From an uncultured bacterium (lineage in GTDB: Bacteria > Chlamydiota > Chlamydiia > Chlamydiales > FEN-1388), in the NCBI GenBank assembly GCA_964512205.1, contig CAZEGK010000004.1, forward strand, positions 34,634-98,633: 64,000 bases of DNA, read 5' to 3'. A program made the translations under genes and the position numbers. The notes beneath the pieces are model-generated. The model ran no database searches and was not told the origin of the DNA. It saw nothing but the letters and a program-made list of their open reading frames with translations. Positions 3,470 through 57,253 of the stretch are shown piece after piece; the stretch's first letter is position 1, and every line of letters begins with the position of its first letter.

Positions 3470-4849
3470 ATGAGCGCAATCGGTGATTGCAAGGTAGCTA
3501 TTCGATTTGCAACTGCAGAAGAATGTAAAAAAGAGCGCACTTGTTCACTCTCATCTGTACTAAAACATGGAAAAGAGCTTGTACGCTCTGTAGTAAACAC
3601 GCTTGGCCTCTTTACCTCCGGATTTAATCTTCACAAAATAGAAGCAAGGTCAAAAGAGCCAAATGCCATCATTAACCAGTGTCCTTTTTTAGCTTTTACT
3701 GGCATCCCGACACATCATGCGGCAACGATTGGAGAGCTAAGTCGGGAAATCTTGAAAACACATCGAGGAGATGAATCTCGCGGATTTGTGATTGACAATG
3801 GACCAAATTCCATCTTTGGATTTATCAAAGATATGTTAGGGGATAGGGAGCTATCACCCGATGATATCATGTTCACCTGCTCGCCAGAATATACAAAAAC
3901 GTATAAAAGAGTATTGGATCGCCATTTCTCCTCCAGGGCAATAGCAGGGGCAAGGGAAAAGATCGAAAAGATGTGCGCATCATTTACAAGAGGGCTCCCT
4001 ACAACGGTCAATGCCGAGCAGTTATCTCTTCGAGTTGCCGTCGCTAGTTTGCAGATAGTTCTTTTTGATGACTATGATGCAGAACCTCAATTTGCAGAAA
4101 GTATAAATTGTTTCTTTGAATATATTTTGCGAAAATTTGAGCAAAAGCCGACTGTTGATCTGCAAATAGAGCTGCATAGAGGCCTTTTTTGGATGACAAT
4201 AGAGAGAGGTTTAAAAGAGGGTAGGGGTGCCATAGGTGCTATTCAGAGAGAGGAACTGCTATCTGAAAAGCAGCTTAAAATGTGTATCTTTTCTCTCTTT
4301 TTTGCCGGTATGGACAGCACGAGATGGTCACTTACCCATTGTTTGTATGAGGTTGCAAAAGATGAGTCTTTGCAGTCCACAGATGAATCGCTAGTAAAGC
4401 AAGTAATTGTAGAGTCGCTTCGCATTCATCCGCCAGTAATTGGAGTCTCGCGAGTTGCTGCAGCCCAGCTTTCTATCGACCAAATAGAGCAAGAGGAAAC
4501 AAAGTCTTACTTTATTTTTAAGGGAGATCTCCTTCTTCCTGCACCAAATCTTGTAGGTCGAGATCCTCGGCTTTTCCCAGAAGATCCAAATCACTTTAGA
4601 CGAAATCGACATGACCCCTCAAAAATCCCTGCATTTTTGCCAGGACTACCCTGGCATCCTTTTGGATATGGGGTCCATCTTTGCCCTGGCGCTTCACTCT
4701 ATAATGAACTTGCCCCGCTCTTTTTGCGTGCACTACTTAGCAACTACAAGATTTCGACAGACAGGCCGGATCTTACGGCTACAGGCTCATTTATTAATAA
4801 AATAGATGGTCCGGTCAGGCTCAAGCTTCAAATTATTTATTGGTTCTAA
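3470..4849 (+). CDS. Cytochrome P450 monooxygenase
   Basis: Heme-thiolate loop FGYGVHLCPGASL (FxxGxHxCxG), K-helix ExxR (ESLRIHPP), I-helix AGxDST (FFAGMDSTRW) and a PERF-like DPNHFRRNRH. No N-terminal membrane anchor. Confidence 0.85.
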   Translation: MSAIGDCKVAIRFATAEECKKERTCSLSSVLKHGKELVRSVVNTLGLFTSGFNLHKIEARSKEPNAIINQCPFLAFTGIPTHHAATIGELSREILKTHRGDESRGFVIDNGPNSIFGFIKDMLGDRELSPDDIMFTCSPEYTKTYKRVLDRHFSSRAIAGAREKIEKMCASFTRGLPTTVNAEQLSLRVAVASLQIVLFDDYDAEPQFAESINCFFEYILRKFEQKPTVDLQIELHRGLFWMTIERGLKEGRGAIGAIQREELLSEKQLKMCIFSLFFAGMDSTRWSLTHCLYEVAKDESLQSTDESLVKQVIVESLRIHPPVIGVSRVAAAQLSIDQIEQEETKSYFIFKGDLLLPAPNLVGRDPRLFPEDPNHFRRNRHDPSKIPAFLPGLPWHPFGYGVHLCPGASLYNELAPLFLRALLSNYKISTDRPDLTATGSFINKIDGPVRLKLQIIYWF

Positions 4850-4951: not shown

Positions 4952-5131
4952 ATGGCAGTACCACGTAATCGCCATTCGAATGCGCGTAAAAATTCTAAGC
5001 GTGCTCACCACGCAAAAAAGCCAAAGTGCCTTTCTGTATGTTCTAACTGCGCAAGCCACAAGGCGCCACACGTAATCTGCGGCTCTTGCGGATGGTATGC
5101 AGGACGTGCTGTTCTTGCAGAAAAAGCATAA
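4952..5131 (+). CDS. rpmF: 50S ribosomal protein L32
   Basis: Hand translation gives MAVPRNRHSNARKNSKRAHHAKKPKCLSVCSNCASHKAPHVICGSCGWYAGRAVLAEKA* (59 aa, below the track cutoff). Typical L32 N-terminus MAVP.nR.S..R...RR.H plus CxxC...CxxC. AAGGAG at 4937-4942 lies 9 nt before the ATG. Confidence 0.9.
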   Translation: MAVPRNRHSNARKNSKRAHHAKKPKCLSVCSNCASHKAPHVICGSCGWYAGRAVLAEKA

Positions 5132-6969: not shown

Positions 6970-8715
6970 ATGCAATTAGGTTCAGAGTTGCCATATATGG
7001 AGATGAGGCCATGGGAGCTTGATCCATCTACAAATAGGCCAAAAAATGAGGGTAAATGTCTTGCTGCGCTTAGGCTCTTGCAGGAAAATCCCGGCTGGGC
7101 ACACACAAGCGATGCTGGCACATATGGTAAGCTGCTACTTGACACTGTCTCTGAACCTGGTACTCAAGTGCACAAAATACAACAGGCAATTTTGCGCTCC
7201 ACGCCGGAACTTTTTGATAGTGTAACGGTAGAGTTTACCTCAGCAGAACCAATTCAAGTTGCAAAAGTGAGACTGCTTGCATTAGGTGATTTTTTTAATC
7301 TTTCTTCAGTAAAAAAGATGCGCGAGGGGCAAAACAACGTGTGGAAATTTGCTCTGCCAGAAGACGTGCTGCAGAAAGACGTGGAGTCATTTTTAGCCTA
7401 CATCCAAACAGGCAAAATAGCAATTACACCAGATAATGCCATAGCTCTTTTTGATCTTGCTCTACATTTTGACATACAGTCTCTTGGCAAGCAATGCGCT
7501 AGATACTTATTAGAGTGCTTGAACGAGGATATCACGCAATTTCCTACGTTACTTCAGCTAGTGGCATCTCGTCCTGAATACCATGGGTTTGTTGCAGATG
7601 TAAAGTGTCAAATTATTAGATATACTGGATTTTTTAGATATAAGAGTTCACAAAGTGCATTAGCCACAATTCCTCCAGAAAAACAGCCCGATTGCGACTA
7701 TCTTTTAAAGCTTGGAGAAGAAGCATGCTTATATGGCTGCTGTGTTGAGCTTGATACACATGGCAGAAGATGTTTTACATTTGACATGGAAAAGAGATCC
7801 TTCCCGTGTCTTGAAAAGATTCAAAAAACATGTGGCATGCAGGCGATTATCGCGAGCTATCATTTAGACGATAAGGATCTTCGGCGCATAAGCGAAATTT
7901 GCGGAGATAGCTTAGAATGTCTAGAATTTAAATTTAATTGCATGAATAATTGTGAAGGCTGTAGAGAATTTCCTGCGCTTGTATCACTTGATAGTAATTA
8001 CTCTTCTCTTACAAATAAAGGTCTTGAGCACATCAGTCATATCGCTCCAAAGTTAGAAGTACTAAAAATCAATAACTCTACAATAACGAGTGTTAAAGGG
8101 TGCAAGAAGTTTGAAATGCTTCATACTTTAGAAGCTTGTGAGCTCGATCTTGATGATGAAGAAGTGCGTCATTTGAGTCTGCTTGCTCCCAATTTGCAAG
8201 AGCTGCATCTTTCCTCCAATAAACTATTAAGAGATTTTACAGGCTGTCAATTTTTACATCTTCTTAAATTAGATCTTTCGGGTACAAAAATCGATGAATG
8301 GTCCTTGCAGTCTTTAGCTGCTGTCTGCGGCAACCATCTACAGGTTCTCCGTATTGATGACTGCGACAGTGCAAGCTTTGAAGAGTGCAAGTGCAAGTTT
8401 TCAAATTTACGAGAATTATATGCAAATAATTTTTCCAAAAAACCAGCTGATGTCTGGTTACAGAATATAAGCAAATATTTAGGCGAGCGTTTAGAGATAC
8501 TTGAGGTGATCGATACGCGTATTACAAGTTTTGCCGGTTGTTACTTTCCCAAACTTAGAAGGTTAGAAGCCGATTATACTCGGCTTACAAATGAAGGGTT
8601 GCAAGCCTTAAGCAAGAGCGCAGCTGACACTTTAGAAGAACTTAACGTAGAAGATTGCAAGTATCTGGTCCCAGAAGACTTTAAAAAATATTTTCCTAAA
8701 CTAATCGACCAGTAA
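6970..8715 (+). CDS. Eukaryote-like BTB/POZ domain plus leucine-rich repeat (RNI/F-box-LRR type) protein
   Basis: BTB-like block VTVEFTS...KVRLLALGDFFN...FLAYIQTGKIAITPDNAIALFDLALHFDIQSLGKQCARYLLECL, followed by about 8 LRRs of the CxxLxxLxL type (LECLEFKFNCMNNC..., LEVLKINNSTITS, LQELHLSSNKL, LKLDLSGTKI, LQVLRIDDCDS, LEILEVIDTRITS, LRRLEADYTRLTNEGL, LEELNVEDCKYL). Confidence 0.8.
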   Translation: MQLGSELPYMEMRPWELDPSTNRPKNEGKCLAALRLLQENPGWAHTSDAGTYGKLLLDTVSEPGTQVHKIQQAILRSTPELFDSVTVEFTSAEPIQVAKVRLLALGDFFNLSSVKKMREGQNNVWKFALPEDVLQKDVESFLAYIQTGKIAITPDNAIALFDLALHFDIQSLGKQCARYLLECLNEDITQFPTLLQLVASRPEYHGFVADVKCQIIRYTGFFRYKSSQSALATIPPEKQPDCDYLLKLGEEACLYGCCVELDTHGRRCFTFDMEKRSFPCLEKIQKTCGMQAIIASYHLDDKDLRRISEICGDSLECLEFKFNCMNNCEGCREFPALVSLDSNYSSLTNKGLEHISHIAPKLEVLKINNSTITSVKGCKKFEMLHTLEACELDLDDEEVRHLSLLAPNLQELHLSSNKLLRDFTGCQFLHLLKLDLSGTKIDEWSLQSLAAVCGNHLQVLRIDDCDSASFEECKCKFSNLRELYANNFSKKPADVWLQNISKYLGERLEILEVIDTRITSFAGCYFPKLRRLEADYTRLTNEGLQALSKSAADTLEELNVEDCKYLVPEDFKKYFPKLIDQ

Positions 8716-9363: not shown

Positions 9364-9554
9364 ACTGAAGTGATCGCTTTAATTGAGATTGTTTATCGAT
9401 TTTCTCAAGACAGGTTCTCAAAAAATACATTTAGATCAAAGTTGAACGAGCAGCAGAAAGCTTCGGAAAAAATCTATATTGCATAAAAAAAACTAAATTT
9501 GTACGTTGTTTCGAAACTTTGCTGGGTATCTTTGCTCAGCCTGTAACAAAAAGG

Positions 9555-12500
9555 ATGAAAATGATACGAAAATTTCAAATAGTATGCCTCACAGTTCTCT
9601 TTGGACTGTTTTTTGGGCAGGTTTCTGCTGCAGGCAAATGTAGAGGCTGTAACGACTCGAGCTCTCACTCTACTAAACAGAGAAGACATAAGAAAACATG
9701 CAAGCTATGCTCGCTCAAAGCGACAGAAATTGATGTTGGCACGCTTCGCGCAACAGAAATCGAAGCTGAAAAGATCGATGCTGGGGAGATCACTGTCAAT
9801 GGTTGTGAAACTGTCCGGGGAGTGGTTGTTGCGGAAAGTTCACTCGCAAATCCATGCTTTACCTTCACATGTAATGCACTTGTGAACATCCAAGATATTA
9901 ATATCGAGAAAAAACTTTTAGAATCTCCCCAGACTCTGACAAATCCATTAGAGGCTTTGCCGATTTTGACTCCAGGCTCTGATGAAAGCTGCCCGGAAGT
10001 CCCTGTAGGTGGAGATCCTTTGGTTACTGCGATTGTGGACCAAGGATTTTCTTTTCAGCAAGATTGGTTGATCTTTACCAACACAAGCGATCTTCCAACA
10101 GCACCAAGTCCAACAGCTAGTGCGGGACCCTGGTATTTTGAAAAAGAACCATACCAGACAACTAACAGAACAGTTATCACATGTGGATGCCGCGAAATTT
10201 ATGATCCTACTTCGCAAAGAGATGATGAGCAGTATCCTCCACATGAGCCCAATACAAATTCTACCATTGAAATTACCTTTGATACGTCAATTTTAGACCC
10301 TCTCGTATCTGAAGTATCGTTGGAACTTGAATATGCCTATTCTTCAGAAGCCAATTACGACTTCTTTACAATCTCCTCAGGCACTACAACCTTTTTCCAA
10401 GGATCGGGTCCTGGACCGAGTGTAGACAATCCATACAACAGAGGCACTCTTACAGTCAAAGTGCCTAAAACTTCATCTGTTATAATTAATTACTATAGAG
10501 ACCCTGCAGTGTACGGCGGTGTTGATTCGGTCTACTTTACAATCAACAAGGCAATACCTGTTTTCCCAATTGAAGTTCCTACACGCCTGCAACTAAAGCG
10601 CGGCAATACTGTTCTCAAAGATTATGGGTATTTGATTGACCTTGATGGCACTAAAGTAAATGAACTCGTGGTGGATTGCCCAATCAGCATTCAAGCCGGA
10701 GATCAACTCTGTTTAGAGGCAGATCCTACGATCTATCAAACCTACAACGTTTCTGCTGAATACCAAAATATTCCTCAGATTAAAGATCATCGTTCCAAGG
10801 AAAACTTTTTTGCACCTGTGCAAATTAATAACCTCGGGTACAACAACCGCTTTCCAACAGATCTTTCAACACTGGAAGGTTGGTACAACACCGACGATCA
10901 GTTTATCCAAAACCTCGTATATATCCAGCAGGTGCAAAATTGCGATACCAATGGCATTCCACAGCTTTCTCTATCTCGCTATTCACTCGCAAGTAGTGGA
11001 CCTTTCTTTGTAAATGGATATTGGAGCGGCACTGCACCTAGCTATTTTACACAGGTAGGAAATAATAGATTTCAAGATAACGCAAGCTTTCTCTTCTATA
11101 ACTTTGATCCTCTTACAGGAGAGATGCGACTAGATCCAGATCCTAGCAACTTGCCTGGTATTGGCAGTACAGGCTACACTGTGTTTAAGCCTATCAAAAA
11201 TACAGACCCCAGATACTGGCAGTATAATTTTGATCTGGTAGATCCGGAACACGAATTTAACCCGCCAATAAACTTTTTTGACTTTGTTGGAGAGTATTAC
11301 AAAACAGGCTATATCTCGTCACAATTTGGAATTTCTTCCTATCCTACTTGGCCTGATATCAATCCTTTAAACCTCGATCAAACTCAATACGCGGCATCAT
11401 TTGGTGTGAGCTCAAAAGCACAGTATGATGATCTATTTCGTCGTTTGAGAGATATTGGGGTTCAACGAAAATATGGCGTACAGAGATTTATCTACTGGCC
11501 ATATCCAGGATCTGATCTCACAGATTCGCAAAAAGCGAGCCTTCGCTGGGTAGTTAACCAGAATCGCTATCCATTCTTAGGCTTTGTAACAAAATTGGAA
11601 AATGAAGGTGAAAATACCTTTGCACGCCTCTGCCCAGGAGAGACGGTCTATCTGAAAGGCACAAATACACGCTTTGACGATTTTCCACTTCGTCTTGCTA
11701 TGGATGGCTATCATACAGGGCCAAAACCAGGACCTGAATTTATGCAAACCTATTCAGGTACTGACCCACGCACAGATGATCCAATCCCATCTGATTTAAG
11801 CTATAATATTTATGATCAGTGGAGCTACTATACAGCCCGCCTTCCTATTACTATAGATGAGAGCAACAACAAGATCTATTCTCGAGGTGGAGGACGCTCT
11901 AGATTTGGAGATGAGCCTTTTTACTTAGATCTACTTGTGAACTCTAATCCGCCACTTGGACTTGGACCATACAGTGTCTACTCAAGCCTTTTGGGACCAA
12001 ACGTTGGTTTAAATCCAATTGCAGGCAATGTCGTGATTGCAGATCCTATTGATGCAAGCACACCGCTCAATAACGCAGCTGAAGTGAACGGCAACGTACT
12101 TATTGTAGTCTTTGGTTCTGTTGGAAGTGGCACAATTGTTGCAAATGCAGCAGCTGCCGGAGCTACTGGAGTCATTATAGTCGATGATACAGTGGAATCA
12201 CTTGCTGATTTTAGCATTGGAGGTGCCGGAGTCATTCCTTCTGTGGCCATTACAAATGTAGATGGAATGGCGCTTATCGATGCTATTACTGATGGTGCAG
12301 AAGTAGATGTTCAAACAGAGCTTAATAGCCCTATCTTTGAAACAACACTTCCTTCTGGAACCTATTATCTCAGCGATATTTATCAGTTACTATATGATCA
12401 ATATCTTGCTGGAGAGACAGAGTTTTTCATCGAAGTTGGAAACTTCATATCAGGTGAATATGGGGTAGATGATTTATTTGTTCTTTCTGGAACAGCGCAA

Positions 12501-14549
12501 GCGCTTCTATTTGGTCCAGAAGATCCAAATTATCCTTCAAATTTCTTTGGACCTACTGGTCTTGATGTAGGATACCTTTGGGATCCGACTGATGTACCTT
12601 TGGTCTCTGAATACCAAGGATTGTCAGAGAATTTCTTTGATGGCTCTTATGCCCAGATTTTGCCTGGCGAGTATAAGACTCATACTCCGCTAACATCAGA
12701 AGAGGCTCAGGCCCTTATTGATGCACTGGATAACGAAACTGTAACTGTGGAGACTCAGCACGGACCAATCACGTACGAGTCAACATATGAAAACTTTGTA
12801 GCCTGCATCAATGAACTCAGCATGCAGAAAGGAACTGAGGATCACACGATGCTTACTCCATGGGTACATAAATGTGACAATGGGCTATTTGAACTGCCTA
12901 TTTCTATGCAGTCGCTGTTAAATGATTTGAAGCTTATTGACTTTGATGAAACAGCTACTTATGTAGCACCATTTAACGATCTAGACGATGAAAACTCTGC
13001 TATTCCAGGAGTCCCTATATCCGCTACTTTTGCGCCTACGCTCTATTGCATAAGCGTGAGAGCTACCGGAACTGGCCATCCAGGAGAGTTCTCCGAAATG
13101 TACAACGCTGGACTCGATAGATCAAGTATCGAAGATCAGTCTCGTTCAGAAGGAAGACTTGAGTGGATTGTACCGAGAAATGGAGATATTTTAATATATC
13201 CCGAGGGAACGGTATTGCCTATCGGAGATCTGAGTGGTCGTTCTGTTGAAATTCCAATTGTAAACTATTTGGAAGATCCACAATGGCTCGGATACACGAC
13301 AAATAATGGAGCACCTGATTATAACTTCATTCCTTATGTCGAGAGCACTGGCCTTGGGCCATTTGCAGATACTGCTGTGGCGGGTTCTTGGTTAATTGGA
13401 GTTATGCAGCCTGAAAAGACACGTGAAATTTTGCAGCTTGCACCAAATGATCCAGTACCAGGTATTGGCTATATCACATGGTATGAATCGATGTGGTCGA
13501 GTGATGGAGATTCCTCACTTTTACCTTGGTATGATCCAAACTTTAGTTCGGTGGATCCAGCAGCCTTAGTGGCTGTAGGAAGAGTGTTGCAGTACTTCAA
13601 TGAGAATGACGTTAAACACATCATTATCGATGTAAGAAACACCATTGGAGGAGGCGAGCCCTTCTGGAACGCTTTTGCCGCAGCGGTTGGAGGAAAGCGC
13701 TACTTTAACGTTACCGATGTCACACCAGTACTGTCTTTAGAGCCTAACGGAATTACTTCTGTTCGTACTACAGCCAACTTTCAAGTGGCGAAGGAAAATG
13801 CAGGAGTAGTTACCTACAACTATCAAGACACAATTTTGGATTGTAATCCAGATGCGTTTGTGGCTGCAGGTTTTACCGACTACATTCCGGGAGGAATATG
13901 GAATGGCGAAGTGACAGGTCAGGCTGATTTAGGACTTAAATCCAACATCATCTGGCTTTCCAATGCAACTGCAATTTCAAACCCTCAGTACAAATGTTTA
14001 CTTGTGAAGGGAACAAGTAAGGACCAAGTTGAGTATAATGGCGATTTTGGACGCTCTACCCAATTTATTGAGTATGGTGTCTACTATCGACCCTTCTCGA
14101 CTAGTGGGAATTACGATTCCTATATCAACTGGTGGACCAAAAATCGAGCTGGTGCCGAAGAAAATCCTCGTGGTTTGATGTATGCGCTCGATCGCTGGGA
14201 AGCAAGCCGATCAGGCTATATGGATGGCAATGTGGATGCACAAGGCGGTGTGTTGAAGGGACTTGATCAAGAATTTAGCAACCTTCATAGACCACAAATT
14301 AAGTGGGATATGAATGCTAACGTCTTCTTCCAAGATATCGGCTATACCATAGGCAACATTGGAACAAGTGTGGATCCGGTAACAGATGGAGAGCCATGGC
14401 TACAAGATCGCTACACCGGAATTGCGTTTGATAATCCGCTTACCTTCCGCGACTCAACTCTTGAGAGATGTGTTCAGATGGTATGTGATCCAAACGTCAG
14501 TTCGCACTTCTATCAAGATGATGGCTACGGATATGTGTCCGAGCCGTAA
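9555..14549 (+). CDS. Giant secreted protein with PA (protease-associated) domain and C-terminal S41 (Tsp/CPAF/tricorn-core)-like signature
   Basis: Signal peptide MKMIRKFQIVCLTVLFGLFFGQVSAA (alternative start 9561, 5 nt after AAGGA). Cys/Lys-rich leader GKCRGCNDSSSHSTKQRRHKKTCKLCS. PA-like block NGNVLIVVFGSVGSGTIVANAAAAGATGVIIVDD...GGAGVIPSVAITNVDGMALIDAI (about nt 12040-12300). IIIDVRNTIGGGEP (nt 13621-13665) resembles the S41 DxRxNxGG motif, followed by IIWLSNATAISNPQ...LLVKGTSKD. Confidence 0.85.
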   Translation: MKMIRKFQIVCLTVLFGLFFGQVSAAGKCRGCNDSSSHSTKQRRHKKTCKLCSLKATEIDVGTLRATEIEAEKIDAGEITVNGCETVRGVVVAESSLANPCFTFTCNALVNIQDINIEKKLLESPQTLTNPLEALPILTPGSDESCPEVPVGGDPLVTAIVDQGFSFQQDWLIFTNTSDLPTAPSPTASAGPWYFEKEPYQTTNRTVITCGCREIYDPTSQRDDEQYPPHEPNTNSTIEITFDTSILDPLVSEVSLELEYAYSSEANYDFFTISSGTTTFFQGSGPGPSVDNPYNRGTLTVKVPKTSSVIINYYRDPAVYGGVDSVYFTINKAIPVFPIEVPTRLQLKRGNTVLKDYGYLIDLDGTKVNELVVDCPISIQAGDQLCLEADPTIYQTYNVSAEYQNIPQIKDHRSKENFFAPVQINNLGYNNRFPTDLSTLEGWYNTDDQFIQNLVYIQQVQNCDTNGIPQLSLSRYSLASSGPFFVNGYWSGTAPSYFTQVGNNRFQDNASFLFYNFDPLTGEMRLDPDPSNLPGIGSTGYTVFKPIKNTDPRYWQYNFDLVDPEHEFNPPINFFDFVGEYYKTGYISSQFGISSYPTWPDINPLNLDQTQYAASFGVSSKAQYDDLFRRLRDIGVQRKYGVQRFIYWPYPGSDLTDSQKASLRWVVNQNRYPFLGFVTKLENEGENTFARLCPGETVYLKGTNTRFDDFPLRLAMDGYHTGPKPGPEFMQTYSGTDPRTDDPIPSDLSYNIYDQWSYYTARLPITIDESNNKIYSRGGGRSRFGDEPFYLDLLVNSNPPLGLGPYSVYSSLLGPNVGLNPIAGNVVIADPIDASTPLNNAAEVNGNVLIVVFGSVGSGTIVANAAAAGATGVIIVDDTVESLADFSIGGAGVIPSVAITNVDGMALIDAITDGAEVDVQTELNSPIFETTLPSGTYYLSDIYQLLYDQYLAGETEFFIEVGNFISGEYGVDDLFVLSGTAQALLFGPEDPNYPSNFFGPTGLDVGYLWDPTDVPLVSEYQGLSENFFDGSYAQILPGEYKTHTPLTSEEAQALIDALDNETVTVETQHGPITYESTYENFVACINELSMQKGTEDHTMLTPWVHKCDNGLFELPISMQSLLNDLKLIDFDETATYVAPFNDLDDENSAIPGVPISATFAPTLYCISVRATGTGHPGEFSEMYNAGLDRSSIEDQSRSEGRLEWIVPRNGDILIYPEGTVLPIGDLSGRSVEIPIVNYLEDPQWLGYTTNNGAPDYNFIPYVESTGLGPFADTAVAGSWLIGVMQPEKTREILQLAPNDPVPGIGYITWYESMWSSDGDSSLLPWYDPNFSSVDPAALVAVGRVLQYFNENDVKHIIIDVRNTIGGGEPFWNAFAAAVGGKRYFNVTDVTPVLSLEPNGITSVRTTANFQVAKENAGVVTYNYQDTILDCNPDAFVAAGFTDYIPGGIWNGEVTGQADLGLKSNIIWLSNATAISNPQYKCLLVKGTSKDQVEYNGDFGRSTQFIEYGVYYRPFSTSGNYDSYINWWTKNRAGAEENPRGLMYALDRWEASRSGYMDGNVDAQGGVLKGLDQEFSNLHRPQIKWDMNANVFFQDIGYTIGNIGTSVDPVTDGEPWLQDRYTGIAFDNPLTFRDSTLERCVQMVCDPNVSSHFYQDDGYGYVSEP

Positions 14550-16626: not shown

Positions 16627-16650
16627 TAGAATTAGGGTAGGAGCGTGAAC

Positions 16651-17268
16651 ATGGAATTATTACGTTCTTTTGACACAGCCTATATTGAAACACAGACTTT
16701 GCTCCCTTTACTGAGTAGCTACACCAATCCCCATGATGTTATTTCGCGCCTTTGTAAGAATGGGGAGCTCATTCGCCTAAAAAACGGCTTCTACATCATT
16801 GCAGAAAAAATTAAGAATTCCAGAGTACCGTATGAACAGATTGCTAATCTCCTTTATGGTCCTTCCTATATCAGCTATGAATGGGCTCTTTCTTATTACG
16901 GGATGATCCCTGAAGGGGTATATGTGCTAACATCTGCAAGTTTTCTTAAGTCCAAAAACTATAAAACAGCTCTTGCTACCTTTGAATATACTCCCTTAAG
17001 CAAGCAGCGCTATGTTGTTGGGATAGATTTAAAAGAAAACAGTGCGGGGAATTTTTTGATTGCAACTCCTGAGAAAGCTTTAGCTGACCTTGTGCACCAA
17101 AAAAGCAAGCATCTTTCAAGTAAAGACCTGCTTATAGACCTTGTGGAGGCACGAAGGATAGATGAAAGTGATTTGAAAAATCTTGATAAATCACATCTTG
17201 CAGAGATAGCTGAGAGTTATCGTTCAACTGCAGTACATACACTTCTCAACGTTATAGGTCGCATATGA
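16651..17268 (+). CDS. AbiEi-family antitoxin (type IV toxin-antitoxin / abortive infection AbiE)
   Basis: N-terminal wHTH-like ...VISRLCKNGELIRLKNGFYII..., then LLYGPSYISYEWALSYYGMIPE and ATPEKALADL, typical of AbiEi_4 proteins. TAGGAG lies 7 nt before ATG 16651 (the track used GTG 16645). Confidence 0.75.
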   Translation: MELLRSFDTAYIETQTLLPLLSSYTNPHDVISRLCKNGELIRLKNGFYIIAEKIKNSRVPYEQIANLLYGPSYISYEWALSYYGMIPEGVYVLTSASFLKSKNYKTALATFEYTPLSKQRYVVGIDLKENSAGNFLIATPEKALADLVHQKSKHLSSKDLLIDLVEARRIDESDLKNLDKSHLAEIAESYRSTAVHTLLNVIGRI

Positions 17269-18144: not shown

Positions 18145-20415
18145 ATGAAGTTTTTAAGTTATTTAGCTGTCCTTGGCCTGTGTGCTGGAACAGTAAGTGC
18201 AGATGATTCGTGCTGCAAAAGTATAAAAAAAGAATTAAAAAAGATTGCCAAAAGGCAAAAACCAGATTGCTGTGAAACTACGCCAATCTGCCAAAATGTG
18301 ATTAACAGAAATGGCGGAACACTCCTTCTCAATAAATCTGGTACCTATGCACTTACAGAAGATGTTGTGGGAACATTAATTGTAGTAGCAGATAGCGTCT
18401 GCATCGATCTTTGCTGCCATACACTGAGTGCTGGTGGTAGAGCAAGTGCAATCGTTGCAAATGGCCATGAAGGACTTGATGTCTATAACGGACGCATTAT
18501 CAATACAACAGATGCAGCAATCTTAGTGCAGGATTATGACTCAGTAGAGCTTTATGACCTTACTATGAGTGGAAATGTCTTTGATTCTATCCGTGAGCAG
18601 AATTCTGTCGATCTTCGTGTGCATAATGTAAATTTTGTAAATGACAATGAAGGTGAGCGCGCGCTCTACTTTAATTCATGTGACAATATAGTTGTTAAAA
18701 ACTGCAATGCATCAGGCTTTTTAAGCACTATTGGAGCGATTATTCAGTTCGATACCTGCAATGCAGGATCACTTGAAAATATTGATGTTACAAGCAATAC
18801 CAAAACATCCGCAGCAGATGTTGATGAATTTAGTGCTGGCACTGCGTTAGTAGCAGTAACAGAAAGTACGGGCGTTGATTTTGTTCACGTAAAAGTAAAC
18901 AACAACACCTTTGACAACAGCGTACCTGTTGCCGATCAGAACAATCATTGGAGAACAGCTGAGGCTATTGCCTTCTTTTCTTCAAATAACTGTTCACTTC
19001 ATCAATGTGAAACAAGTAACAATACTGATGTTGCTGGCAATGTCGCTACAACAGATACAGAAGATTACATGCTCCTTTTCATTTTTTGTGACAGTTGTAT
19101 CGTAACAGAACATCAATCAAATACCAATAGCTGCACGCAGCCAATACTCTATTTTGTTGCAATTGGGTGCTTAGATTCAGCTAACAATAGATTTGAAGGT
19201 TGTCAGGCAAATAGTAATTTAGTCTCAGAATTATTTGTCCTACCTGGCTCCGAATCTGGTATGGTCCCTATGTGGGTTGCCGAGTATTTTGATTTTGCAT
19301 TAAGTAATGGAAATGTGCTACGAAATTGCCAGGCTAACTTTAATACTGTTACATTAGGTGGAGCAGGCCGTACTGATTTTGATAGTGCCGCTTACAATGA
19401 AGCCATATTAGTTGGAGGAACTGATAGCGTAGTTGATCATTGCCAAGCAAATAACAATACGATGGGAGATAATCAACCATTTACAGCAGCTTTGGGGATT
19501 GCTTCTATTGGAACCAATACAAAGATACTTAATTCAACCGCAGATAACAATACTGGTGGTGGAGAGTCGTTTGGTATTAATTTGTTTTTTTCAAATTTGG
19601 GGAGTCATGGCCGTAATCCACTCATCTCAAATTGCTCAGCAAGTTCTAACGGTAACTGGGGAATCCAGGTTGGATTTGATGGTGATTTAACAGAAACAAT
19701 TCTTGATGTTGTGATCGAAGATTGTGTTTGCAACAAAAATGGAGGTCAATCAGGTCCTGCAGCAGGAATCATTGTTGTACCTGTTCAACCTGGTGCAACA
19801 AATATCTTCATTAAAGGTTGTCAAGTCTATGATACAACGTCCTCTGATGGCGATGCCACAGGAATTAGTGTAACGAACGCAAGAAATGTAGTGATAGAAG
19901 ATTGCGAAGTCTTTACTACGACAGCGGATGGTCTTGGCCATGGCATTCTCTTTGATACAGTTACTGACTCCAAAATTATACGCACACAGGTTCATGAGAA
20001 CCAAAATAGCGGCGTAGAAATTATTGGCGACAATAGCAACATTGCGATTATCGAATGTATTGCTATGAGTAACAACATAGGTTTTGATTTTGCTATTGGA
20101 TCCACAGCATCATGCAGCCTTGTTCAAGACTCTCGTGCTATAGATAACAGCGTAGCTGGATTTGCTTACCCTATCGGGCCGCTTACTGTTACCTTCATTG
20201 GTAATGAATCGCAGTGCAATGGTGAGACCATATGTGCAAACTATTCAAATTTAAATGGCACCATCAATCTGCAGGAACTTAGCTGGTTTGATGGTTCTAT
20301 TACACCGGTTAACCCTGTAGGACCGGGTGCAGCAGCCCCTGGTGCACGCTTTACAAACCTTATTGCAGTACCGACATTTACTTCAATTGCGGGCTGCATT
20401 GCACCTCCTCCGTAA
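18145..20415 (+). CDS. Secreted right-handed parallel beta-helix repeat protein with Cys-rich N-terminal module
   Basis: Signal peptide MKFLSYLAVLGLCAGTVSA. Leader DDSCCKSIKKELKKIAKRQKPDCCETTPIC. Repeated PbH1-like turns (NVVIEDCEVFTT..GHGILFDTVTDSKIIRTQVHENQNSGVEIIGDNSNIAIIECIAMSNNIGFDF; NIVVKNCNASGF; NCQANFN / HCQANNN / GCQANSN). No C-terminal autotransporter barrel is evident. Confidence 0.8.
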   Translation: MKFLSYLAVLGLCAGTVSADDSCCKSIKKELKKIAKRQKPDCCETTPICQNVINRNGGTLLLNKSGTYALTEDVVGTLIVVADSVCIDLCCHTLSAGGRASAIVANGHEGLDVYNGRIINTTDAAILVQDYDSVELYDLTMSGNVFDSIREQNSVDLRVHNVNFVNDNEGERALYFNSCDNIVVKNCNASGFLSTIGAIIQFDTCNAGSLENIDVTSNTKTSAADVDEFSAGTALVAVTESTGVDFVHVKVNNNTFDNSVPVADQNNHWRTAEAIAFFSSNNCSLHQCETSNNTDVAGNVATTDTEDYMLLFIFCDSCIVTEHQSNTNSCTQPILYFVAIGCLDSANNRFEGCQANSNLVSELFVLPGSESGMVPMWVAEYFDFALSNGNVLRNCQANFNTVTLGGAGRTDFDSAAYNEAILVGGTDSVVDHCQANNNTMGDNQPFTAALGIASIGTNTKILNSTADNNTGGGESFGINLFFSNLGSHGRNPLISNCSASSNGNWGIQVGFDGDLTETILDVVIEDCVCNKNGGQSGPAAGIIVVPVQPGATNIFIKGCQVYDTTSSDGDATGISVTNARNVVIEDCEVFTTTADGLGHGILFDTVTDSKIIRTQVHENQNSGVEIIGDNSNIAIIECIAMSNNIGFDFAIGSTASCSLVQDSRAIDNSVAGFAYPIGPLTVTFIGNESQCNGETICANYSNLNGTINLQELSWFDGSITPVNPVGPGAAAPGARFTNLIAVPTFTSIAGCIAPPP

Positions 20416-20854: not shown

Positions 20855-21676
20855 TTACGCTAGAAGCCCTACCATTTGTAAAATGCGAGCACATTCAACA
20901 AGCTTATCTTTTGTAAAGATGGCGAGTTTATTTTTTGCATTTTCAAGGTGATACTCAGCTGTTCTGTAAGAGATGCCCAAGCTTTGAGCTTGTTCTTTAG
21001 CAGTTTTGAGCTCGCAAGCAGCAAGCAATGCCTCTTTTTCGCGCCGAGAGAGTGTTTTGGCAAAAGTAAAGAGAGAGGGGGAAACTCCAATTTGCTGGAG
21101 AAACTGAGCGTGACTTTCTGGATTAGGGAGGCAATTACTTCCATAGCTTTTGTTATAATAGCGATTCTTTCCCTTTAACTCAGCTAAATTGATGCTAGTT
21201 TCTTCTGATAACGTTTTGAATTTCTTGGTTTCGGCCAAAAAGTAGTTAAGATAGCTGTTAAGTAGAGGCAGATTATTGCTATAAAAAGAGGGTAGAGTGA
21301 GGAGCTTCTGACGAGAAGCAAAGCCAAAGATATGTGCCTTGGACGCGCTCTCTTTGCGTATAATAATAAGCGGATGATGCAGCGGGTGTTTTTGTTCTAA
21401 GTTACGAATAACTTTTTCGAAATGTGTGTCAAAATCAAGATAAAAATAGCCAGGTGTTAGGCATGAGGGTGCTACAAGGAAATGCGCGTCATTATACCAT
21501 TGACTCTCATAAAAATAGCTCAACTGGTCATGAAAGTTAGAGGTATTTGAAAGATATCCTTCTTCGGTAATCTGGATATGCCAGAAATTGTCAATGCCAA
21601 AATTGCATTTTAATGGGTCGGTAATTTTCTTTAAGGTATCCTGGCACCTTTCGTTATATGTAAAAAAATCCCTCAT
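20855..21676 (-). CDS. LuxR-family transcriptional regulator (autoinducer-binding-like N-domain plus C-terminal HTH), paralog 1
   Basis: C-terminal LuxR/GerE HTH LSRREKEALLAACELKTAKEQAQSLGISYRTAEYHLENAKNKL. The N-domain aligns by eye with paralog 2 (31717..32535). Lengths are 273 and 272 aa. Confidence 0.8.
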   Translation of the reverse strand: MRDFFTYNERCQDTLKKITDPLKCNFGIDNFWHIQITEEGYLSNTSNFHDQLSYFYESQWYNDAHFLVAPSCLTPGYFYLDFDTHFEKVIRNLEQKHPLHHPLIIIRKESASKAHIFGFASRQKLLTLPSFYSNNLPLLNSYLNYFLAETKKFKTLSEETSINLAELKGKNRYYNKSYGSNCLPNPESHAQFLQQIGVSPSLFTFAKTLSRREKEALLAACELKTAKEQAQSLGISYRTAEYHLENAKNKLAIFTKDKLVECARILQMVGLLA

Positions 21677-21730
21677 CTTGCACCTTTGTAAAAATAATTA
21701 TATTACAATCTATGGTTTTTGTCAAGGGAA

Positions 21731-21789
21731 TATAACAAATTTGTATAACAAATTCCTGCTGGAACTAGCCAGTCGTTCCAGCAGGAATT
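21731..21789. promoter_or_regulatory. Repeat/palindrome cluster in the spacer between the lipase-like gene and LuxR paralog 1
   Basis: Direct repeat TATAACAAATT x2 (21731-21741, 21744-21754) containing the palindrome ACAAATTTGT. A perfect 14-bp inverted repeat aattcctgctggaa (21751-21764) / ttccagcaggaatt (21776-21789) with an 11-nt spacer. Confidence 0.45.
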
Positions 21790-21801
21790 GCGAGCGGGTT
21801 A

Positions 21802-22695
21802 TTAAAGAGTTTTTGCTAGTGCTTCAAGAGTTGATCTAAAAGTAAATAGCTTATGGCATGTGGTATCAACCGCTGAGGCATATCCTGCAATGTGCTGTTT
21901 CATTTCAGGTGTTACATGAGTTAAGGTTTTCATTGATAACGTAGGTTTTACGGAGCATGGAATTAAGGTGACATCGTAGTCTCTCATGCAAGAGGCATAC
22001 TTTGTGTATCGCTCTTCAACACCCGCTACATTATCAGGATTTCCTGTCCAAAAATTATTCACAAATTCTGGAATTCTTTCAGGTCCCCATTGATACTCTC
22101 TAAACCAATCCTCTTTAAATTGAGCAACTACAGCTTCTTCTAATGGGACCTCATCAAGGCGCATTCTGTCGGTAAGCTTTATAATTTTTTCTAAAGTATG
22201 TTCTAGGTCAAATTTGTCATTACCAGCTCTACAAATCATGTCGCCCTTGGCAACATAATTTTTAACATTGCCTGCAAGCATTTTGGGGATCATTACAACA
22301 CCACCAAATGAGTACACATCAACTAGATCTGCTATTTCTGGCTGTAATTTTTCAAGGGCAAGTTTTGTGATGAGTGCCCCATGGCTATGTGCAAATACAG
22401 GAACTCGTTGATTGCCAGACTTTTCCACCTGTTCACGCATACAGCGAGCAAATTGAGTTGCAATCTCATCAATTTTTTGTCTTTGTTCTTCGCTATTTGT
22501 GAAAAACTCTCCCAGCCCAGTTGGATTATTAAAAACAACTAACTTACGAGAAAAAATTGAGCTTAGAAGGCTGGTTTGATCATTAAGATTCCCTCTTTGT
22601 CCTTCATCATCATGATTAGAGCAAATTCCATTACAATAGACTAATGGTGTCTGTTGGGTAGTACCCGGGATTTCAAAGATTCTTACTGCTTGCAT
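21802..22695 (-). CDS. Alpha/beta-hydrolase fold protein (lipase/esterase-like)
   Basis: Nucleophile-elbow-like VFAHSHGALI (xHSxG) after a beta-strand. TAGGAG lies 6 nt before the ATG. Family not identified further. Confidence 0.55.
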   Translation of the reverse strand: MQAVRIFEIPGTTQQTPLVYCNGICSNHDDEGQRGNLNDQTSLLSSIFSRKLVVFNNPTGLGEFFTNSEEQRQKIDEIATQFARCMREQVEKSGNQRVPVFAHSHGALITKLALEKLQPEIADLVDVYSFGGVVMIPKMLAGNVKNYVAKGDMICRAGNDKFDLEHTLEKIIKLTDRMRLDEVPLEEAVVAQFKEDWFREYQWGPERIPEFVNNFWTGNPDNVAGVEERYTKYASCMRDYDVTLIPCSVKPTLSMKTLTHVTPEMKQHIAGYASAVDTTCHKLFTFRSTLEALAKTL

Positions 22696-23106: not shown

Positions 23107-23427
23107 TGTGAGCAGGGGCGGCCCCGCTCGTTGAGCTAGTTACAAATTTTCTGCAAGATCTTGTTTTGTGGATAGGGTGTAGCTAACGGTAACTTTTGCA
23201 AAGGGCTTGGGGATGCGCAGCCTATCCCAGCTTTTTAGCTCCCAATACGAGGTTGCTTTCCAGTTCATAGCGATAATCTGGCAATCTGCCTTTTCCTGAG
23301 CAAAAAAGATGCCAGGTTTTATGGCATGTCTTGGACCTCGCGGGCCATCGGGTGTTATGAGGACTACTTTATTGCTTGTAATAGCATCGACAGTCTGTAA
23401 GAGGGCGGCATGTCTTGAATTGTGGGG
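23107..23427. repeat. Right ~320 bp direct repeat (intact 3' end of the DUF374 gene plus 33 nt downstream)
   Basis: See 8733-9052. Confidence 0.9.
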
Positions 23428-23748
23428 GACAAAGATTGGTTCAACGTTAGTGAATGTTTTGCCATAGGCTGCAAGGAGCTTGCCATCTTTGCTGTTGCTG
23501 ACAACTATGGCAAGTGGCTTTTCCTTGAGGACTCTACGGATAAGGGAGGCTAGGAAGAGGCCATCGTGCCAGAGGGCTACAATAAGCGGGCTCTTTGCTG
23601 CTTGCACAAGCTCTTTCTTGCCCTCAATTTTGATTCGTAGTGTGGCAAAAAGAAGACTTGTCACTAGGCGAAGACAAAACGCAAGCAAAGCAATCACTGG
23701 TTTCATTCGCAAGAGATTAGAGAATCGCACAGATCTCCTGCGCAGCAC
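23140..23748 (-). CDS. DUF374 / lysophospholipid-acyltransferase-like protein
   Basis: LIVALWHDGLFLA, VSNSKDGKLLA and LITPDGPRGPRHAIKPGIFFAQEKADCQII match the DUF374 (COG2121) pattern. The 5' end overlaps the lpxB 3' end by 32 nt. Confidence 0.75.
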   Translation of the reverse strand: MLRRRSVRFSNLLRMKPVIALLAFCLRLVTSLLFATLRIKIEGKKELVQAAKSPLIVALWHDGLFLASLIRRVLKEKPLAIVVSNSKDGKLLAAYGKTFTNVEPIFVPHNSRHAALLQTVDAITSNKVVLITPDGPRGPRHAIKPGIFFAQEKADCQIIAMNWKATSYWELKSWDRLRIPKPFAKVTVSYTLSTKQDLAENL

Positions 23749-56665: not shown

Positions 56666-57253
56666 CTACCTCGTCTTTTCCTTCTCAAAATCGTCGTGGA
56701 TGCTTGGTTTTTTGTACTGCTTCTCGTTGTAGTAGGTAATAAGGGCATCCACAAGTGCATCTGGGTTTCTATTGTAGATAATTTTTGCTCCTGTTTTCTT
56801 TCGTATCATTTTTACAATGGATTTTATGCCAGATGTTATGCCGCCTGTGCCTTCTAAAATGCCAATTAATTTCCCTTCGTCGTAGGCAATAGAAAACTCT
56901 CCGAGTGTTCCAGATCTTCCTCCTACAATGATGACAATATCTGAGCTTCGAATATTGACGACTTCTCTCCCCATGAGGCCGCTTCCTGTGAAAATGAGTA
57001 CCTGATGATAGGTAGTAGGGGATTGATACCTAAGCATATGTTCCCGCTCGCTAAGTGCAGGAGATATTCCAATAACAAGCCCTGCTGCTTCACTTGCTCC
57101 TTTGGCAGCAGCAAGCGGCATTCCAGGACATGCGCCCGTGATGGTTATGCAGCCCTTTTTAGCTATGGCAGAGCCAAGTTCGTAGCAGAGTTTTTTATGT
57201 TTTGCAGTAATTTTACCTGTTGCAGAGCCCATAACACCGATTTTCAGTTGCAT
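56666..57253 (-). CDS. TIGR00725 / LOG-like (SLOG superfamily) Rossmann protein
   Basis: IGVMGSATG, ITGACPGMPLAAAKGA, VIGISP and VGGRSGTLGEF follow the LOG/TIGR00725 pattern (GGgxGtmxE-like). Confidence 0.7.
   Translation of the reverse strand: MQLKIGVMGSATGKITAKHKKLCYELGSAIAKKGCITITGACPGMPLAAAKGASEAAGLVIGISPALSEREHMLRYQSPTTYHQVLIFTGSGLMGREVVNIRSSDIVIIVGGRSGTLGEFSIAYDEGKLIGILEGTGGITSGIKSIVKMIRKKTGAKIIYNRNPDALVDALITYYNEKQYKKPSIHDDFEKEKTR

Follow-up and report, generated by a model that had tools for sequence, protein, structure and literature searches.

Two LuxR-type regulator genes and their domains

The DNA analysed here, a stretch of 64,000 nucleotides from an uncultured chlamydia (contig CAZEGK010000004.1, positions 34,634 to 98,633; hereafter the window), carries two genes coding for LuxR-type transcriptional regulators, both located on the minus strand. 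The first, paralog 1, occupies positions 20855–21676 and codes for a protein of 273 amino acids (aa), and the second, paralog 2, lies at positions 31717–32535 and codes for a protein of 272 aa; each is supported by the listing of open reading frames (ORFs), a GerE match, an AlphaFold2 model and Foldseek comparisons. Both proteins comprise an N-terminal ligand-binding-like domain (N-domain) and a C-terminal GerE/LuxR helix-turn-helix (HTH). In paralog 1 the N-domain spans approximately residues 1–155 (21212–21676, minus strand), as judged from the secondary structure, the fold match to YenR and residue mapping, and in paralog 2 approximately residues 1–152 (32080–32535, minus strand), as judged from Foldseek, profile alignments and residue mapping. 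The HTH, delimited by Pfam PF00196 and residue mapping, lies at residues 208–257 of paralog 1 (20906–21055, minus strand) and 207–261 of paralog 2 (31753–31917, minus strand). The GerE score is 28.6 bits for paralog 1 and 44.2 bits for paralog 2, the gathering cut-off being 23.5.

The two proteins are 27% identical end to end (BLASTP, E 2e-23) and are the only two members of the profiled family within the window. A first-pass annotation, made by a model from the sequence alone, had described them as paralogs sharing an N-domain and a GerE/LuxR HTH; this description is confirmed, with coordinates and lengths exact and with GerE above its cut-off in the Pfam comparison that the annotation had proposed. 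The homolog search returned 17 orthologs of paralog 2, at 38–67% identity. Among the closest sequence matches of the family HTH in PDB, VqmA of phage VP882 (7DWM) ranks first or second, above TraR, SdiA and LasR.

Identity of the N-domain

The N-domains resemble the ligand-binding domain (LBD) of the receptors for acyl-homoserine lactones (AHLs) both in the predicted fold and in sequence profiles. AlphaFold2 models were built from the family alignment and reached a mean confidence (predicted local distance difference test, pLDDT) of 85.4 for paralog 2 and 79.9 for paralog 1. When the two models were compared with PDB by Foldseek, the top 32 matches of both were without exception full-length AHL-type LuxR receptors (SdiA, RhlR, TraR, QscR, LasR, CviR). 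The best match of paralog 2 is SdiA (E 3.3e-8), and the list of paralog 1 is led by SdiA, RhlR, TraR and QscR (E 4.8e-7). The structures consisting of the LBD only, those of LasR, YenR and CepR2, align at a template modelling (TM) score of 0.53–0.65; for the LBDs of LasR and YenR, TMt is 0.6–0.65 and the root-mean-square deviation (rmsd) 3.3–3.8 Å over ca. 145–150 columns, paralog 1 aligning with YenR at TMt 0.65 and rmsd 3.8. The first-pass annotation had reserved the case of an N-domain without similarity to such domains in profile or structure searches; what was found is a fold list headed by the AHL-type receptors.

Two other sensor types were considered and rejected. The VqmA structures, representing a PAS-type sensor, do not appear among the top 50 fold matches, and for a GAF/CodY-type sensor the matches to CodY and 3clo (E ca. 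2e-3 to 9e-3) rank under every AHL-type receptor.

The wider family was collected by an exhaustive HMMER search with a profile of the N-domain only, devoid of the HTH, and is counted here in clusters at 50% identity. At E≤1e-3 the search yielded 1,836 clusters, with 628 of them reaching E≤1e-10; the proteins are almost without exception 250–290 aa long, and GerE is present in 124 of the 126 aligned members. PF03472 (Autoind_bind) is matched by 36 of the 126, with the best E value of 3.7e-7, and the wider family thus holds bridges to the canonical domain. The NCBI label of one family member reads 'LuxR C-terminal-related transcriptional regulator [Chlamydiales bacterium]'; the other clusters looked up bore generic names or none. 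A tblastn search of 72,556 plasmids with two N-domains gave no match.

A distant family member, P0178, 24% identical to paralog 2, is encoded at positions 5001–5819 of contig CAYWZU010000015.1 (L010) and is flanked by genes for a CesT-type chaperone, SSB and a Ser/Thr kinase. It comes from the same metagenome-assembled genome (MAG) as one of the paralog 2 orthologs (locus L007), which indicates that chlamydial genomes carry several diverged paralogs.

With the broad N-domain profile, the TraR LBD is the top PDB sequence match, and the hhalign comparison of this profile with a TraR/SdiA reference gives a probability of 95.7% (E 1e-8) over 154 columns corresponding to TraR residues 7–167, i.e., the whole LBD. 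The relationship is one of homology and not a mere likeness of fold. At the level of single proteins and close relatives the signal is faint: the NCBIfam TraR model scores 17.3 bits on paralog 2 and finds nothing in paralog 1, three of the 19 close relatives touch PF03472, weakly, and a single-sequence search of PDB with the N-domain returned HTH matches only and nothing usable. Taken together, the Foldseek matches, the hhalign alignment and the PF03472-bridging relatives bear out the kinship with autoinducer-binding domains put forward in the first-pass annotation: the N-domains are remote homologs of the LuxR autoinducer-binding domain, a relationship going beyond resemblance of fold.

Pocket and DNA-binding residues

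The canonical reference set comprised TraR of pTi, seven plasmid LuxR proteins and SdiA of E. coli; residues W57, P71, W85, G113, E178 and G188 (TraR numbering) are invariant in it. At the position of Y53, paralog 2 has D51 and paralog 1 asparagine, and among the 126 members of the broad family asparagine (55), serine (30) and aspartate (24) are found. W57 is replaced by V55 in paralog 2 and by glutamine in paralog 1, the broad family having tryptophan in 49/126. Y61 is retained as Y59 in paralog 2 and is phenylalanine in paralog 1 (family: tyrosine 79, phenylalanine 26), D70 corresponds to D68 and alanine, respectively (family: aspartate 38, asparagine 36), and P71 to P69 and histidine (family: proline in 101/126). 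The counterpart of W85 is I84 in paralog 2 (S83 in the HMMER register) and leucine in paralog 1 (tyrosine in the HMMER register), tryptophan being present in 0/126 members in the HMMER register and in 9/126 in that of hhalign; that of G113 is L108 in paralog 2 and proline in paralog 1, with glycine in 25/126. As to the HTH, E178 is E213 in paralog 2 and glutamate also in paralog 1 (119/126 in the family), L182 is I217, a conservative replacement, in paralog 2 and leucine in paralog 1 (leucine in 81/126), and G188 is G223 in paralog 2 and leucine in paralog 1 (glycine in 107/126).

The three HTH residues are thus effectively all kept in paralog 2 and two of the three in paralog 1. The six canonical LBD residues (W57, Y61, D70, P71, W85 and G113), whose scoring had been proposed in the first-pass annotation, give a divided picture: the equivalents of Y61, D70 and P71 are in place in paralog 2 and the other three are replaced, and in paralog 1 all six have been lost. 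The same annotation had pointed to a likeness of the Y...DP residues of paralog 2, which lie in the motif ADYYYDQKLYANDPYL (residues 56–71), to the core of autoinducer-binding domains; according to both HMMER and hhalign these residues are the true counterpart of TraR Y61, D70 and P71. Its reading of paralog 1, with DA in place of DP, is correct in that DP is absent, and in error as to the DA, which is offset by one position, the aligned residues being A–H.

Seven residues of paralog 2, D51, Y59, D68, P69, G110, G123 and W125, are invariant across 15 of its orthologs, and conservation within the subfamily peaks in segment 50–76 (0.85 vs 0.74 for the HTH), a pattern that points to selection acting on the pocket region. 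In TraR, residues Y53, W57 and D70 form hydrogen bonds with the AHL head group (1L3L/1H0M). The equivalent trio of paralog 2 is D51, V55 and D68, two of the three being replaced. Because the equivalents of Y53, W57, W85 and G113 are all substituted, the ligand of paralog 2 is probably not an AHL. Paralog 1, with the replacement of all six canonical residues, may either bind another ligand or act ligand-free. For the two proteins a non-AHL ligand or no ligand is more likely than an AHL.

Proposed mode of action and alternative explanations

The reading that we favour, and hold to be reasonably probable, is that both genes code for one-component transcription factors belonging to a large, highly diverged and hitherto unannotated branch of the quorum-sensing (QS) type LuxR receptors, with the N-domain probably gated by a small molecule other than an AHL. 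The proteins are composed of an N-terminal alpha-beta-alpha LBD, a family-specific segment of ca. 50 residues and the C-terminal GerE HTH. By analogy with the characterised LuxR receptors, the binding of a small molecule by the N-domain would lead to folding or dimerisation and in turn to DNA binding by the HTH. Gating by a non-AHL molecule appears likelier for paralog 2 than for paralog 1.

Several results weigh against this reading. In the PF03472 comparison proposed in the first-pass annotation, neither paralog attains the gathering score: paralog 2 scores 13.1 bits (E 0.067), below the cut-off of 23, and paralog 1 gives no match. The N-domain profile of the close relatives has no match in PDB even at E≤10, and the narrow subfamily profile aligns with the TraR/SdiA reference at a weak hhalign probability of 13.9%, which is why the broad-family profile was needed. 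The residue registers of HMMER and hhalign agree except at W85, where they lie one residue apart. No operator was identified, and no conserved motif was found upstream of the paralog 2 orthologs. Among the 20 window ORFs of 110–301 aa there is no match to Autoind_synth, in agreement with the first-pass annotation, which had noted no LuxI-type synthase in the window. Finally, the conservation of segment 50–76 could reflect contacts in folding or in the dimer instead of contacts with a ligand. Both proteins miss the PF03472 cut-off and lack the full set of six canonical LBD residues, two features by which the QS LuxR family is usually delimited; they are therefore classified here as a divergent variant of the QS LuxR receptors and not among their ordinary members.

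Some of these results, namely the lack of a match above the Pfam threshold and of PDB sequence matches with the narrow profile, speak for a spurious likeness, in which case the paralogs would combine a GerE HTH with a novel N-terminal domain of unrelated origin; however, the two models, the profile–profile comparison and the bridging relatives converge on one family in a consistent register, and this explanation is effectively refuted. It is possible, albeit doubtful, that the proteins are ligand-independent regulators, in which a degenerate LBD serves as a scaffold that allows dimerisation or lends stability, or as the site where a partner protein docks, activity being set by expression in the developmental cycle. 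Partner proteins of LuxR receptors are exemplified by TraM, QslA and PqsE, acting on TraR, LasR and RhlR. Such a mode would accord with the loss of all six canonical LBD residues from paralog 1, with the virtual absence of tryptophan at the W85 position across the broad family, with the perfect, constitutive-looking promoter of paralog 1 described below and with the lack of a nearby synthase among the ORFs searched. It fits poorly with the pocket segment being the most conserved part of the paralog 2 subfamily, with its seven invariant residues, and with the domain remaining intact across ca. 1,800 diverged clusters.

That the paralogs are canonical AHL-sensing 'solos', eavesdropping in the manner of SdiA on the AHLs of bacteria co-resident in the host or habitat, is suggested by a fold and homology that are those of AHL receptors, by the Y61, D70 and P71 equivalents kept in paralog 2 and by tryptophan at the W57 position in the 49 broad-family members mentioned above. 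We consider it very unlikely, as the equivalents of W57, Y53, W85 and G113 are replaced in paralog 2 and those of all six canonical residues in paralog 1, and such losses were taken in a 2015 survey of LuxR proteins as pointing to non-AHL ligands (PMC4338825). A redox-responsive mode, in which the paralog 2 subfamily would sense the oxidation state between developmental forms through invariant cysteines, with the LBD fold as the sensor, seems highly improbable. C34, C112 and C152 of the ligand-binding-like domain are invariant in 15/15 paralog 2 orthologs and are not cysteine in the broad family, and C216 of the HTH is cysteine in 76/126 family members; yet the proposal draws on conservation alone, and paralog 1 is devoid of equivalents of C34, C112 and C152.

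Gating by a non-AHL molecule, our preferred reading, may be extended to a broader and rather unlikely proposal, according to which environmental Chlamydiae carry a lineage-expanded LuxR-type family (several paralogs per genome, ca. 1,800 clusters) whose remodelled pockets sense host- or chlamydia-made molecules in the inclusion. If true, it would imply a ligand-gated one-component layer, perhaps even a quorum signal within the inclusion, helping to time the developmental cycle or effector expression; the textbook picture of chlamydial regulation includes no such layer.

The region upstream of paralog 1

Paralog 1 is preceded by a perfect sigma-70-type promoter sequence, TTGACA-17-TATAAT (12/12; 21697–21725, minus strand), situated 21 nt upstream of its ATG. 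A direct repeat, two copies of ATTTGTTATA with a 13-bp period (21731–21753, minus strand), abuts the −35 hexamer and is a candidate operator or activator site. Further upstream lies a hairpin with a perfect 15-bp stem, AATTCCTGCTGGAAC-N9-GTTCCAGCAGGAATT (21751–21789, minus strand), which begins 13 nt past the stop codon of the gene for a lipase-like protein; its folding energy is −26 kcal/mol (z −4.6), and none of 200 shuffled sequences folded as well. The hairpin is a probable terminator parting the lipase-like gene from paralog 1. Exact copies of ATTTGTTATA occur within the window upstream of paralog 1 only, and neither the direct-repeat nor the hairpin motif recurs elsewhere in it. With its own predicted promoter and the upstream hairpin, paralog 1 is predicted to be transcribed independently, and each of the two paralog genes appears to be a transcription unit of its own.

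Neighbouring genes and synteny

The lipase-like gene (21802–22695, minus strand), which precedes paralog 1 in the same orientation, codes for a 297-aa putative alpha/beta hydrolase with an AHSHG motif resembling a nucleophile elbow and with sub-threshold Pfam matches only (Cutinase, Abhydrolase_8, DUF900, DUF676). On the other side of paralog 1 lies a gene for a 756-aa right-handed beta-helix protein (Beta_helix; 18145–20415, plus strand), a neighbour only, convergent with paralog 1 and not divergent from it. Paralog 2 is convergent with a gene for a 207-aa protein with a long, Inc-like hydrophobic stretch (31063–31686, plus strand), likewise no more than a neighbour, and divergent from a gene for a 441-aa protein without a Pfam match (32698–34023, plus strand), a link that is not conserved. 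Next to the latter a 623-aa secreted-looking protein is encoded (34028–35899, minus strand), with a DUF11 repeat (TIGR01451, 54.8 bits) and a weak match to an isopeptide-forming fimbrial domain (32.4 bits). Paralog 2 and the 441-aa gene are separated by 162 bp of AT-rich sequence (32536–32697), which contains imperfect AT-rich palindromes (32622–32673) and no convincing lux-box.

Another gene for a 207-aa protein (16645–17268, plus strand), with weak, sub-threshold AbiEi antitoxin-like matches, borders a stretch comprising the beta-helix, paralog 1 and lipase-like genes, in which the G+C content is lower (0.39–0.41) than that of the window (0.427).

The conservation of the neighbourhood was assessed at seven loci of paralog 2 orthologs (L001–L007) from Chlamydiae or uncultured MAGs, one of them labelled Rhabdochlamydia. 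No neighbour is common to the window and these loci, whose flanks encode DnaA, an amino-acid permease, an ABC transporter, RseP, a leucine-rich repeat (LRR) protein, DUF1543 and a HAD hydrolase; among the seven themselves the sharing of neighbours is patchy, and the arrangements around the two known paralog 1 orthologs also differ. The neighbourhood drawn in the first-pass annotation is real, the lipase-like, Beta_helix, 441-aa, hydrophobic 207-aa and DUF11 genes all being present. The control of these surface- or effector-like genes by the adjacent regulators, which it had proposed, is not upheld: none of the seven paralog 2 loci shares a neighbour with the window, paralog 1 appears insulated by the hairpin and its own promoter, and its link to the beta-helix gene has against it the convergent orientation of the two genes. 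The surface- or effector-like neighbours, tempting as they are, do not form a conserved partnership with the regulators, and target genes are not inferable from the neighbours of either paralog.

Host and other genes of the window

The chlamydial origin presumed in the first-pass annotation is well founded, as the paralog 2 orthologs come from Chlamydiae MAGs and the window itself encodes a protein with BTB and LRR domains, a Pkn-type kinase and HtrA, which together with SNF2 and a lipid A cluster fit an environmental chlamydia. In this cluster a gene for a DUF374 acyltransferase (23140–23748) adjoins lpxB. The BTB/POZ and LRR protein (581 aa; 6970–8715, plus strand) is eukaryote-like and typical of environmental chlamydiae; an LRR protein 31% identical to it is encoded at L007:4284–5930, directly upstream of the paralog 2 ortholog.

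Several other genes are worth mentioning. A cytochrome P450 domain protein of 459 aa (3470–4849, plus strand) is not an enzyme usually met with in chlamydia-like genomes. The LexA DNA-binding domain scores 55 bits in a protein of 194 aa (53126–53710, minus strand), a putative SOS-type regulator, and a SLOG cluster4 (LDcluster4) protein (144 bits; 56666–57253, minus strand) has a nucleotide/ligand-binding fold sometimes linked to signalling or defence. In a 1,676-aa protein (9519–14549, plus strand) the PA domain alone is recognised; CCTTCTGGAAC occurs in it twice, 1.3 kb apart, which hints at internal repeats.

Significance

Accounts of chlamydial transcription commonly name few regulators, and QS-type LuxR receptors are, to our knowledge, seen as confined almost wholly to Proteobacteria. 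Full-text searches covering Chlamydiae, Waddlia, Protochlamydia and Simkania brought up no report of LuxR-type ligand-binding domains in Chlamydiae or of the present family, and a paper on chlamydial transcription factors mentions neither LuxR nor GerE (de Barsy 2016). The present analysis shows that a large family, whose label goes no further than 'LuxR C-terminal-related', carries a bona fide, remodelled LuxR LBD, extending this receptor family into the Planctomycetes–Verrucomicrobia–Chlamydiae (PVC) superphylum. Relatives of chlamydia may thus sense small molecules via diverged LuxR-type receptors. The two genes can be cloned as candidate small-molecule sensors of obligate intracellular bacteria, and the family offers natural pocket variants for ligand discovery.

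Comparison with known systems

With the QS LuxR receptors (TraR, LasR, RhlR, QscR, CviR; PF03472 and PF00196) the paralogs have in common the order of the two domains and the LBD fold, and paralog 2 also the equivalents of Y61, D70 and P71 as well as of E178, L182 and G188. They differ in falling below the PF03472 threshold, in the replacement of W57, W85, G113 and Y53 and in having the LBD and the HTH ca. 35–40 residues further apart. Moreover, the window shows no LuxI partner, and the paralogs come from Chlamydiae and not, as the QS receptors do, from Proteobacteria.

The non-AHL LuxR 'solos' (the plant-associated OryR/XccR/PsoR, PluR/PauR, SdiA) are similar to the paralogs in the lack of an adjacent synthase and in substituted pocket residues. 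PluR and PauR of Photorhabdus respond to non-AHL ligands. These solos pass PF03472 and lie within proteobacterial diversity, while the chlamydial family has diverged much further and makes up a large clade of its own.

VqmA of Vibrio and of phage VP882 likewise combines a ligand-binding domain with a LuxR-type HTH, and its HTH is a near-best sequence match of that of the paralogs; its sensor, however, is a PAS domain, unlike the AHL-receptor-like N-domain described here.

The 2015 survey lists 11 LuxR exceptions outside Proteobacteria, with no chlamydial member among them; its non-proteobacterial solos, from Methylacidiphilum, Actinobacteria, Nitrospira and Desulfurispirillum, have both W57 and W85 substituted (PMC4338825). 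The surveyed proteins were found via the InterPro entry for PF03472 (PMC4338825), to which the chlamydial paralogs are invisible. The solos of Methylacidiphilum, also a member of the PVC superphylum, have L-Y-D-P-R-G at the six canonical positions (PMC4338825), a pattern similar to the V-Y-D-P-I-L of paralog 2.

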